64,000 nt of DNA from Lingula anatina (Eukaryota > Animalia > Brachiopoda), in NCBI GenBank assembly GCA_051362555.1, contig CM120649.1, forward strand, positions 1,488,001 through 1,552,000. The letters are read 5' to 3'. Both the position numbers and the translations under genes were made by a program. Positions 27,594 to 55,885 of the stretch are shown here, one piece after another; the first letter of the stretch is position 1, and every line of letters starts with the position of its first letter. The notes beneath the pieces are model-generated. The model saw only the letters and a list, made by a program, of their open reading frames with translations. It had not been told where the DNA came from and made no database searches.

Positions 27594-27753
27594 CTACGTA
27601 TCCATTTGGATCTCTTCCATGCCGTTCATACCTTTCATTGAGATAAATACTAATTTTCAAAGCCTCCCTAAGACTGCTGGTCCCCTCCAGGATTTTCTTG
27701 GCCCAACACATTCTGAGGAATCCTAGCATCTTGCCCACTTTTACCATTTATAG
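27594..27753 (-). pseudogene. phr: Class II CPD photolyase penultimate exon, copy 1 (degenerate)
   Basis: aag|[53 protein letters not shown]|gtaagt. Matches the class II photolyase motif [27 protein letters not shown]; has an in-frame TAA and Y>C, W>G changes. Confidence 0.88.
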
Positions 27754-29161
27754 CTTGGAAAATGAGACCAAGTACCCGGGATTAATCTATTATTACAAGA
27801 TAATTCATCCTGCAGTGCTTGAATGGTTTATTAAATTTTAGCCTTCGGATATATATTTGTCAATGAATTAGAATTGGATTTTTTTCTTCAAACTGTGTGG
27901 TCTTATAATTTTATTCTTTTCTTCTGAGTAAATGGTAAGGATGTAATGCCTAGGCGAATTGCCACCTTCAATTATACTGCAACAATATTAACCTTCTTGT
28001 GAATAAAGATGTTTAAAAAAATCTGAGTAAATCAAGTAAAGGAAATATGTGTACCATACAATGCCAAACCGGGCAAATGTTCTGCAAAATACAGTTCGAA
28101 ATACTATAATACATCCCTTCCTCCAAAATCTTCTCATAAAAATGCCCAAGCATTTAATTTATATTTCCTCAAGCAGATTTACATATATATGAATTTAAAA
28201 TAGTTTATCAATTAGTATCATTTTATCTGTTATTATTTTATCCAAAAACTGTCTACCAATTGGAAATTTGTTTAATGCCCCCCTCCCCCCGGAATAAAAA
28301 ATAAAAATAAATTACCCAGTTTACTATACTCTGCAAAGGGTCCTGTAAAAGGAAACAAAGAATGACTTTCATGACCCAATATTCATGTTTGCTTTCACGA
28401 CCAAAGCTCACTTATAATTTCAAAAGCAGCATGATTTTTGTAATGATGTGTTATATTATAATATATTATTGAGGCTGTGTGTATTATGCATCCATAATAT
28501 TTTCTGTATTTGCAAAAAAAAAAAAAAAAAAAAAAAAAATAATAATAATAGACTCCAATGGTCATTAAATACCCTGTGACATCAGTCAATGTGATTACAC
28601 TTAATGAGTTTAAGTATAAAGGTATATTTATTAAAATCCATCAGGTGAAAGTACATATCCAAACTACAATTGTTCTTCTACATGTATATTTAATCATCAG
28701 ACTTTAGAAGACTATGAAAATATTAATTATTTTCTAAATTTTAAAGTACATTATGGCTTTCTGCAAAGGTTTATCAGCTTGGTATGTACATGCACTGGCT
28801 TTATATAAAATACACTGGTAACATGAAACTTTTTCTTAACTGAATTGGTTAGATTCCAATTACCCATGCTCTTCTTATAAAATAGTCACATGAAATTCTT
28901 TCCTGAGTATTAATTTTTTTTTCAAAACCTGATAATTCAACAGATTCAGTCCATCATACTACAGATCAATCCTCAATTTATGAAATCATGAATCCTTGAA
29001 ATTCTAACTTGCCAAGGATAATCCTTCGTCCAGATATCATAAAAATGTACTGATACTGGTGCATCACTGCCTTTTACAACAGGGAACTCCATGAACCATA
29101 TTTACATGTATTATATGTCACAACTAATGCCTGTTCTTGAAAATAAACATGACTACAGATA

Positions 29162-29310
29162 TTAGTGCTTCTTTCCTCCATATTTTCTAACAAAAGCTGG
29201 GACATCAAATTTCCTTTCGCATCCTTGATAATTCATGAAGCGTATCTTTCCAAACACAGGTCTCTCTCCCCATCCCTGGTCATGAATACCACATATGCTC
29301 CACATACAAC
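29162..29310 (-). pseudogene. phr: Class II CPD photolyase last coding exon, copy 1 (intact frame)
   Basis: ttccag|[49 protein letters not shown]. Phase-compatible with the penultimate exon; AATAAA on - at ~28627-28632. Confidence 0.88.
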
Positions 29311-31784
29311 CTGGAACAATAAACAACAGTTATGTATTACTAATTGAATTGTTGAGGATATAAGATAATTTACTGAGAAGTAATTGTTTAGCATCTTGAT
29401 TGGCGATATAAATAACATACAGGAATAAATATGTGACTGACAGTCACAGAAATATTGGAGGTAATACCCACATATTTTGTAAGCTCTTGATAAAAAGAAA
29501 AACAATAATTTAAAAGGAATAAATATGATATGTTCATACTGGTCAACAAGTGTAAATCCCCCCTCCTCCCTGCCACCGCCACCATTTTTTAGTGTGAACA
29601 TGTCGTGATTAATCCCAGGAATGAGCTAGCTGTGTAAACCAAAATCAAAACCCATCGCATGATGGAGAAGAATACTGATCTAGAAATGATGGGAAATGGT
29701 GTTGATCTAACCAAATGCATCACATTCGCATACTAGCTTTCTCTCTCTGTCTCTCTGTCTCTCTCTCACACACACACACAAAGCCAGACACAGACACACT
29801 GATGCACATGCACTGACAAATTCACTGATACACATTCAAAAACAACAACAACAACAACAACAACAATGCCAACAACACACTGACACTTGCTGCGATCATG
29901 ACAGTCACAATATGTACTAAAACAGGCTAGAGTCTGCACATGTAATAATTAACATTTTTAACCTCAATAATAACAACGAAAGCAGTCTTCTTTTCCAAGG
30001 GTCACATTCAGCGTTTGCTGATTAAACAAAAACCATGATAAAACCCACACAGAAAGATAAGACTATTAGCACAGTATTTTATGACTTTAGGACTTTAGAC
30101 TTTACGTCCTCTCCTAACGTGAAGTAGGAAGTGGGTACATAAACAGGTAAAAGAATTATAAAATATATTGTTGATTACTGTATACATGGAACCTTTTGGA
30201 GTATTAAATCATTAACTTAACTCAACAGTTTACTTTTAAGCTGTTTTGGCATGATGAAAATATGTCTTTAACTTGGACAGGGGCCAAACCTACATGTACT
30301 GTATAGTGCTTATGTTTCTCACTGGACTTATGGAACATTAGAACATTCCAGAACTAAGCAAACAAAGTGGGCTAGAGAGTTTTAGAGAAACAAATTGCAT
30401 GGGCAAAGTTGAAACAAGCTGAAACATAGTTCATCTTTACTAAGACATAAAATGAAATCAAAACCATGCAATCTATGTTGATTGAACACTTCATTTTCAG
30501 ACAAAGCCTTGTCATTAAGAAGATCAACAGTGAAACCTCAGTGGACGTCATTTGGGACATCTCACAGGCAGTAACATTGGGTCACCTGAAAAATTAACAC
30601 GTAAAAAAAAAAAGAAAAGAAAAAATCTGAATATCAACCAGGGACAGATTCGCTCCCAGGTGAGTAAAGACAATATGATGCCTGGGTGTCCTACACTTGA
30701 CATTTTAATTACTCCTAAATTCAGAGAATTAGCCAGAAGTGGACAGACTGGGAGTGTAATTATAAATTCTGGGAGTGTAATAGCAATGAGGTCAAATGGA
30801 CCGAGATGCTGCCAGAGTCCGGGGGGGGGATATATGATTTTTTTGAGGCCATTTGGTGCATTCTGGTGACATTTTGAAATCAAAATATTGTTTGATCAAG
30901 TTTTATCATATTTCATAATTTCAAAGAATAATTGTAATGGCAATTACATATTATATTCCAATCTGAAAAATATTGCTTTAACTATTAAACAACAAAAACA
31001 CAATATCTAGACAAATTCACCTTTGATTTTATGCACGTAGTTTTACATTTTAAACCATTTAGAGTAATCTTTGTCACCAGTTAGCTGACTAAACTGTTTT
31101 TAAGGTCAAACCATTTTCATCTGGATCTTAAAACACAATTAAATATTTAAATTGACTTTAAAATGCATGTAGTGTACTATCCGTGGCAAGTTGACATATA
31201 ACGACAGAGCAGCAATGTTATTTCTGAACTGAGCCAAATATGGTCGTTTTTGTTTACCCAAGACACAAGCCTTTTTCTGGGTTTTAAACACAATTTTATG
31301 TATTATTTATCATGAATAAAAATGTATGGTAAACACACGGCTTCATCATGGGCCATGATTTGAAAAACTGACAGTGTTTCATGAAAAATGGCTGTGCAAA
31401 ACATGGCCACAGCCTCCTTCTTGGTATGTACCAACAGCTACAGTTGAGCTCCGGAATGTTTCCGAAAGGAACAATTTTTAACAACTTAACTGGTTACTTT
31501 TTATAACACCTCCCCTCTTTTATGAATGGATTGTGTACATAATGCATGTTTGCTCACTATATTATCAACTGACAATATTTAAGTGATTAATTGCAGCATG
31601 GGATGTTATCTCCTGTGACCATTGAAGTGTCAGCTCTAGTACCCTATAAGTATCTCGGTTACCTAGATGGGTGCTTTCGGTAACAAAATGTAACAAACTG
31701 ATAACAAGCTGGAGCGTTCTTTCTGAGCTCAACGGCTAGATTTGCCACATTTGGTGGTGTAATACCAAAAAAAAAAAGAGTTTT

Positions 31785-55163: not shown

Positions 55164-55219
55164 CTACGTATCCATTAGGATCCCTTCCATCCAGCTCATA
55201 CCTATCATTGAGATAAATA
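55164..55219 (-). pseudogene. phr: Class II CPD photolyase penultimate exon, copy 3 (5'-truncated)
   Basis: [19 protein letters not shown]|gtaagt; the upstream part and acceptor are missing. Confidence 0.8.
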
Positions 55220-55736
55220 ATGAATACATTATATTTTCTGTCAGGTAAAAGTACACAAACAAACTAAATATTGTCTTCTACATTTAATCATGACAAAATA
55301 ACTATGAAAATGTCAATTATTTTCTTAAATTTAAAGTGCATGATGGTTTTCTAAAAAGGTTTATCAGCTTAGTATGTGAATGCACTGGTAAATATGAAAC
55401 CTTCTCTTAACTGAATTGGTTAGATTCCCACTAAGCATGCTCTTCTCACCATATAGTCACATGAAATTCTTCCCTCTTTAATATATACATATTTTTTCAA
55501 AACCTGATAAGTCTACATATTCTGTGCATCATACTAAGAATCAATCCTTTAATTATGAAACCATGAATCCTTGGAATTCTAACAAGCTAAGGATAATCAT
55601 CCGTCCAGATATCATAAAAATGTACTGACACTGGTGTATCACTGCCTTTTGCAACAGGAACTCCATGTACCATATTTATATGTAAAATATATCACATCAA
55701 ACGTCCGTTCCTTAAAAATAAACATGGCTACAGATA

Positions 55737-55885
55737 TTAGTGTTTCTTTCCTCCATATTTTCTAACAAAAGCTGGGACGTCAAATTTCCTTTTGCATCCT
55801 TGATAATTCATAAAGCGTATCTTTCCAAACACGGGTCTCTCTCCCCATCCCTGGTCATGAATACCACATATGCTCCACATACAAC
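55737..55885 (-). CDS. phr: Class II CPD photolyase last coding exon, copy 2 (intact; may belong to a gene starting beyond the window, or be orphan)
   Basis: ttccag|[49 protein letters not shown]. No upstream photolyase exons were recognised in 55.9-64 kb. Confidence 0.7.

Follow-up and report, generated by a model that had tools for sequence, protein, structure and literature searches.

A receptor gene probably nested in the last intron of a photolyase gene and multiplied with the host's terminal exons in Lingula anatina

How can the last exons of a gene for ultraviolet (UV) repair come to stand repeatedly, and in the wrong order, between genes for predicted immune receptors? This question is raised by a stretch of 64,000 nucleotides (nt) of eukaryotic DNA with a GC content of about 34% from the brachiopod Lingula anatina (assembly GCA_051362555.1, contig CM120649.1, positions 1,488,001 to 1,552,000), which was analyzed as a whole and is called the window hereafter. 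It carries exons of a class II cyclobutane pyrimidine dimer (CPD) photolyase on the − strand and three receptor genes of the HEPN–NB-ARC–TPR type on the + strand. We regard it as the best explanation as a whole, and as probably correct, that a receptor gene lay nested in the last intron of a working photolyase gene and that this block was multiplied head to tail. In the following, P and L designate the penultimate and the last photolyase exon, and the numbers 1 to 5 denote the repeat unit from left to right.

Photolyase exons and the repeating unit

A tblastn search, for which the full-length photolyases (400-700 amino acids, aa) among the best 120 of 927 protein matches served as queries, returned only five photolyase sites in the window at E<=2e-7, each found by 86 queries, and everything else had E>=0.02. 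The class II CPD photolyase content is restricted to the last two exons, with P present three times and L twice, all on the − strand. P1 (27753-27594) and P2 (38753-38594) have a length of 160 nt with intact AG/GT sites, P3 (55219-55164) is a fragment comprising the 3' 56 nt of the exon with an intact donor, and L2 (29310-29162) as well as L4 (55885-55737) contain an intact AG acceptor followed by 48 codons and a stop codon. P ends with G and L starts with GT, which results in a phase 1 join (G|GT) with the glycine before CMWSICG as in the homologues, where both are consecutive exons. L4 matches the structures PDB 3UMV and 2XRY with E-values of 2.6e-21 and 7.2e-16 and is, among the matches listed, at most 90% identical to animal enzymes across the full exon. 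At the exon level, this is the C-terminal FAD-domain sequence of class II enzymes; the photolyase exon pieces of 48-53 aa gave no match in Pfam. In comparison to the class II CPD photolyases of animals (Phr), the window holds the last two exons only and no complete enzyme gene.

The original prediction had noticed that neighbouring exons are in the wrong order on the − strand, and this is indeed the case, as L comes before P at 55885>55219 and at 29310>27753. It had also proposed that the order is restored by joining P2 to L2. This join has the phase 1 G|GT junction and its span holds all of receptor 2: the coding part of this gene (32390-36692; exons 32400-32976 and 33502-36692) and its likely 5' exons are located on the opposite strand between the P2 donor at 38594 and the L2 acceptor at 29310, which is the arrangement of a nested gene.

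A comparison of the spacers with the TPRs masked resolved them into five colinear units or remnants of them, and not four, with E-values from 1e-8 down to 0, so that chance matches can be dismissed. From left to right, a full unit consists of the photolyase 3' untranslated region (UTR), L, two conserved blocks upstream of the receptor, the HEPN exon, the NB-ARC–TPR exon, 1.7-2.1 kb of further sequence, P and about 0.8 kb of P upstream flank. Unit 2 is complete. Unit 1 is devoid of L, unit 3 of L and the receptor 5' exons with P being cut, unit 4 of the receptor coding exons and P, and unit 5 is reduced to a UTR remnant and 5' exons, after which repeats follow. Photolyase UTR-like remnants had been predicted at four unit starts; all four are present on the − strand (17195-17854, 28567-29161 including flank, 39499-39684 and 55245-55736), and a fifth one at 57521-57815, which has no L exon, had been missed. 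On the − strand, AATAAA has a common position in UTR copies 1, 2 and 3 (17205, 28627 and 39553; three of the five copies). It is absent from UTR4 at the deleted boundary, where ATTAAA occurs at 55283, 55477 and 55548, and for copy 5 the position falls outside the remnant. Only L2 retains both the exon and AATAAA.

Of the two upstream blocks, one ends with CAG|GTAA (donors at 18488, 30147, 56680 and 58802) and the other has 120-160 nt, AG/GT borders and no ATG (starts at 18670, 30501, 57184 and 59111). Judged by these features, both are likely non-coding 5' exons of the receptor. In unit 1, the region of exon 1 (17899-18487) is locally duplicated and is followed by the putative exon 2 at 18670-18809. 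The corresponding regions span 29930-30659 in unit 2 (exon 2 30501-30659), 56450-57328 in unit 4 (exon 2 57184-57328, with no coding exons thereafter) and 58500-59231 in unit 5 (exon 2 59111-59231, with repeats up to the end of the window). The bin with exon 2 of unit 4 contained reads in RNA run X17 (mean 4.6; this run also covers receptor 3) and none in runs X11 and X14. That the 5' exon region is itself a transposon is unlikely, as its summed depth in DNA run X1 is 28-79 compared with thousands or more on adjacent repeats.

The order of the elements is informative with regard to their origin. Tandem arrays are generally known to carry fragments of neighbouring genes, and receptor and photolyase might have been ordinary neighbours in tail-to-tail or head-to-head orientation, whose exons were scrambled by duplication. 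Genes lying side by side would give the cyclic order receptor, L, P, whereas the observed order is receptor, P, L (UTR–L–receptor–P), and the contradiction could only be avoided by a further rearrangement before all duplications; we consider this origin highly improbable. In every unit that keeps them, the donor side of P faces the receptor 3' end and the acceptor side of L the receptor 5' end. The homology extends without interruption from the receptor 3' end to P (25358-27806 against 36450-38811; in two pieces for unit 3) and likewise from the UTR via L to receptor exon 1 in the 5' region (28605-30361 against 55209-56897). The break lies between the P upstream flank and the UTR end. A self dot-plot had been suggested as a check, and in our comparison the breakpoints do not fall between receptor and exons.

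The junction at this break (28023-28566 between units 1 and 2) is common to the boundary of units 2 and 3 (38877-39560), and a relic of 22 nt is left at the boundary of units 3 and 4 between the cut P3 and UTR4 (55220-55241; one mismatch to 39399 and three to 28486). The shared junction segment has no match left of unit 1 (15000-17200; score 25 against a shuffle mean of 24). All unit matches are on the same strand, so that the array shows the direct colinear units and the single novel junction of a tandem duplication. The continuous homology on both sides together with the shared junction indicates that, when the first duplication took place, the receptor already stood between L and P; the later copies arose via the same junction, as unequal crossing-over would give. 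The proposed ancestral unit of UTR, L, an intron with the antisense receptor and P, duplicated head to tail, is thus supported by order, homology and the shared junction, and on this basis the receptor likely lay antisense inside the last photolyase intron before the duplication.

Selection on the last exons and evidence from sequencing reads

To evaluate the state of the exon copies, homologues were aligned (171/172 for P and 169/172 for L) and a column was considered conserved if it was the same in at least 90% of them. Conserved columns are changed in 7 of 33 positions in P1, including a stop codon, and in 6 of 33 in P2, which has an open frame and the donor GTATGC; no change was found in the P3 fragment (0/10), L2 (0/24) and L4 (0/24). 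By its sequence P1 is dead, and P2 is likely dead as well. Between L2 and L4, 1 of 118 replacement sites and 4 of 26 silent sites are different; for the UTRs the count is 80 of 487 and for the intron core 98 of 389 positions. The proportion of replacement differences (pN) is 0.008 and that of silent differences (pS) 0.15 (Fisher p=0.004), the latter matching the 0.16 of the UTR. Neutral evolution of either L after the split would lead to an expectation of about 9 replacements, and the probability of one or none is about 0.001. The last 24 intron bases are conserved in both L copies, and the receptor 5' exons are located about 0.8 kb from the acceptor in both (837 nt between the L2 acceptor and donor 30147). 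It is likely from these sequence comparisons that L2 and L4 both functioned as last exons at a time when the intron already contained the receptor. The selection on L2 and L4 and the clean P3 fragment make it likely that the nesting took place in a functional gene; this selection on two last exons is a new point beyond the earlier observation.

Reads of four of the 20 runs listed (X1, DNA; X11, X14 and X17, RNA) were mapped to 44001-64000 at 88% likeness. In X11, polyA RNA reads cover the L4 bin with a depth of 14.1 on one strand and 0 on the other, with 37 at one point of the exon, and this strand corresponds to − strand RNA if the library is of the usual kind. X11 has no reads in the intron bins right of L4 and at most 0.1 on the coding bins of receptor 3. 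X14 shows traces (0.1-0.3) on most receptor 3 bins on the strand opposite to that of X11 and none on L4. X17 covers both, with 4-14 on the receptor coding bins and 9 on the L4 bin; this run looks unstranded and cross-mapping of paralogues is possible. A coupled or opposed transcription of both genes, which had been considered, finds no real support in three RNA runs that show photolyase only, a trace of receptor only, and both. Taken together, the earlier interpretation holds for the nested unit and the tandem duplication, and a functional link between immunity and UV repair is unsupported. The ratio of bin to point depth in X11 is 0.38, and a rough simulation gave 0.41 for L2-type and 0.81 for L4-type reads, a hint that the distance of the expressed UTR from L4 roughly equals that of L2.

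The contigs of X1 match the window without differences, with a depth of 40-50 over 44001-53236 and 25-28 over 56353-59447; depth in this run is no measure of copy number, and X1 may itself be the source of the window. This hints that units 4 and 5 are present on one chromosome only. Among DNA runs of the same species label, the share of sequence words found at 48900-58800 was 0.78, 0.61, 0.33 and at most 0.10, which would fit strong variation at the locus or between populations. The half depth also bears on the question whether the assembler stacked units 4 and 5, as an alternative haplotype, beside units 1 to 3, so that the wrong exon order would partly be an artefact, and none of the eight X1 contig pieces listed bridges 55219-55245. 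Such an artefact would leave units 1 to 3 unexplained, whose junctions are homologous and only about 66-76% alike, and it does not account for the diverged relic of the shared junction at the boundary of units 3 and 4. We therefore regard it as very unlikely.

If the nested origin is accepted, L2 and L4 might also serve as alternative last exons on this very chromosome, with a long isoform running antisense through receptors 3 and 2. This would agree with the conservation of both L copies and of the last 24 intron bases and with AATAAA being kept in UTR2 and not in UTR4. The two proteins would differ by a single residue, so there is little reason to retain both, and the half X1 depth over units 4 and 5 points to haplotype differences instead. 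This reading, to which we give a rather low probability, is the main variant of our explanation and not independent of it.

A photolyase end handed on between units

Coming back to the nested origin as the preferred explanation, we assume that a HEPN–NB-ARC–TPR gene settled antisense in the last intron of a working CPD photolyase gene, the upstream exons of which would be located right of the window. The first pair would have arisen when a segment was duplicated that was bounded by one breakpoint upstream of P and another one downstream of the poly(A) site, and unequal crossing-over, deletions and insertions would have led to the five decayed units. A transcript that included two copies of P would gain 160 nt and with them a frameshift, so that surplus P copies would be useless. 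By contrast, the transcript could end in any L that is intact, has its UTR and lies downstream of the working P, and L copies would stay useful. This difference would explain why the P copies died and the L copies were kept. L2 and L4 may each have been the working last exon for most of their own history, most likely on haplotypes with different copy numbers; on one of these haplotypes, P3 would be spliced to L2 over about 25.9 kb in which receptors 3 and 2 are located together with the dead P2. The expansion was likely driven by selection on the receptors, with the photolyase exons as passengers. On the chromosome at hand P3 is cut and UTR4 is without AATAAA, so an intact photolyase gene is not assumed here. 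Whether the array hands the photolyase end from unit to unit, with haplotypes using L2 or L4 across introns with different receptor numbers, so that a gain or loss of receptor copies may extend, redirect or disrupt the UV-repair gene, is a tentative idea which we hold to be possible but somewhat doubtful.

Several observations speak against this explanation. Upstream photolyase exons were not found by tblastn in the 64-kb window, including the 8.1 kb right of L4. No photolyase with a Lingula name was among the best 120 of 927 or the best 120 of 7995 protein matches, which is no proof of absence. A P–L splice joint was not among the 15 of 148 joints listed, all of which came from repeats or DNA contigs. 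With regard to the X11 ratio, a divergent individual would look the same, and the aligner of the simulation differs from the mapping tool. In the selection test, 48 codons with 5 differences are a small basis, and P3 is a short fragment. Finally, UTR3 is 32% different from UTR2, but the flanks of receptors 2 and 3 differ by only 9-10%; in view of this discrepancy, the units are mosaic and we do not claim an order of events.

In part, these observations are what would be expected if the 3' end of the photolyase had been duplicated and detached and the receptor had inserted into this copy, with the real gene and an ordinary last intron elsewhere and with gene conversion from the real gene keeping L2 and L4 clean. 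Besides the missing upstream exons, the right end filled by a retroelement-like remnant and other repeats and the poor fit of the X11 reads to the UTR of L4 would agree with such a detached copy. Gene conversion, though, erases silent and replacement differences alike, yet pS is at the level of the UTR and pN far below it; the P3 fragment, moreover, is clean too. We consider a detached duplicate unlikely and prefer the nesting in a working gene.

Receptors, neighbourhood and known systems

The three receptors on the + strand contain HEPN_DZIP3 (PF18738, E 5e-29 to 2e-30), NB-ARC (PF00931, E 2e-8 to 6e-5) and TPR_12/TPR_10. Receptor 1 spans 19923-25540 (exon 19933-20509 with HEPN_DZIP3, exon 21147-25540 with NB-ARC and TPR) and receptor 3 spans 48934-53494 (exons 48944-49520 and 50730-53494). 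Joined at the GT-AG intron, the proteins of receptors 1 to 3 have 1656 aa (open), 1255 aa (with an in-frame stop at codon 972 inside the TPRs) and 1113 aa (open). The HEPN Rx4H catalytic motif is found in all of them (RNNHMH, RNKHMH and RNKHMH), as are the P-loop GMGGIGKT and the Walker B motif V(V/L)IFD (3/3). This is the tripartite effector–NTPase–repeat architecture of NLR-like STAND proteins; neither NACHT nor LRR was among the best 25 families per receptor protein, so they are not NLRs in the strict sense of NACHT plus LRR. From their domains, the receptors are predicted to be intracellular sensors with TPR as sensing part, NB-ARC as switch and HEPN as RNase effector. The TPR arrays with their units of 126 nt (22550-25300, 34900-36400 and 52100-53250) differ strongly in length among the receptors, which makes them a likely site of fast recognition change. 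A partial duplicate of the start of the receptor 3 HEPN exon (48519-48656, about 90% alike) lies 430 nt upstream and is preceded by AG and ATG. The best relative is L. anatina LOC106161156 (XP_013393483.1), and the next six matches are also Lingula proteins of the HEPN/NB-ARC/TPR type; the identity to receptors 1-3 over HEPN and NB-ARC is 70-83%. In a tree, LOC106161156 forms one clade with receptors 1-3 and is identical to none of them.

In place of L3 and the 5' exons of receptor 3, about 8.8 kb of unrelated, partly high-copy DNA (39700-48500) is found, with inverted repeats at 44515-45291, 45988-46263 and 46461-47765 and with DNA that is very high-copy in X1; this stretch likely consists of nested transposons. 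Right of unit 5 there are short local tandem repeats (60234-60799 and 62046-62344; units of about 200 nt and AACGTTG-rich units) and, at 63290-64000 on the − strand, broken frames with the aspartic-protease-like motif LPDSGA, which are high-copy in X1 and are covered by X11 reads mostly on one strand. We take these frames to be Ty3/gypsy-like; the fragment scanned gave no Pfam match. On the left, an ANKMY1 homologue with MORN and ankyrin exons extends from about 4150 (4154) to about 14700 on the + strand, tail to tail with the array, and its end is at most a few kb away from the photolyase UTR remnant farthest to the left. For synteny via ANKMY1, there was no near-identical representative, the accessions of 10 ANKMY1 proteins and of 10 photolyases belonged to different species, and we found no literature on ANKMY1 and photolyase together. 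For the photolyase models of Armadillidium (696 aa, P0001) and Darwinula (1063 aa, P0140), the exon queries gave roughly double the score of one match, which points either to 3' exon repetition in further animals or to wrongly joined models.

Genes nested in introns have been described before, as have variable HEPN/NLR clusters; the amplification together with host exons is an unusual variant. According to the accessible part of one source, about 10% of the genes in Drosophila and 5% in mammals are nested, and transcriptional interference is discussed (PMC13343718). The locus resembles these animal cases in that an intron of an unrelated host encloses a whole coding gene, which in this case is on the opposite strand. 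In contrast to them, the repeat unit exceeds the intron and carries the last two exons and the 3' UTR of the host; host exons were multiplied, their order is scrambled, and two last exons look selected. The available passages on the pearl oyster describe DZIP3/hRUL138-like HEPN and NACHT clusters in tandem arrays with copy numbers varying between haplotypes, and, as in the window, HEPN with Rx4H is N-terminal to a STAND NTPase with TPR as possible C-terminal repeat (PMC9646362). The NTPase here scores as NB-ARC and not as NACHT, and those passages mention no nesting in a host gene (PMC9646362). A combination of NB-ARC with TPR is described, in the portion available, for placozoans (PMC6321704). 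In the searched, mostly open-access literature, mainly covered by listings, we found neither a description of this locus nor one of an array whose amplification included the last exons of its host, and the Lingula passages of the survey PMC9498864, as far as accessible, do not discuss a Lingula CPD photolyase.

The findings imply no new biochemistry, and gene models at this locus will be fragmented or mis-ordered. At this locus it can be read how a rapidly changing receptor array expands in a housekeeping gene and need not kill its host: internal exons that are in excess decay, and last exons in excess can take over. Should the photolyase end in different last exons on different haplotypes, a single locus would physically tie selection on UV repair to selection on immune copy number.

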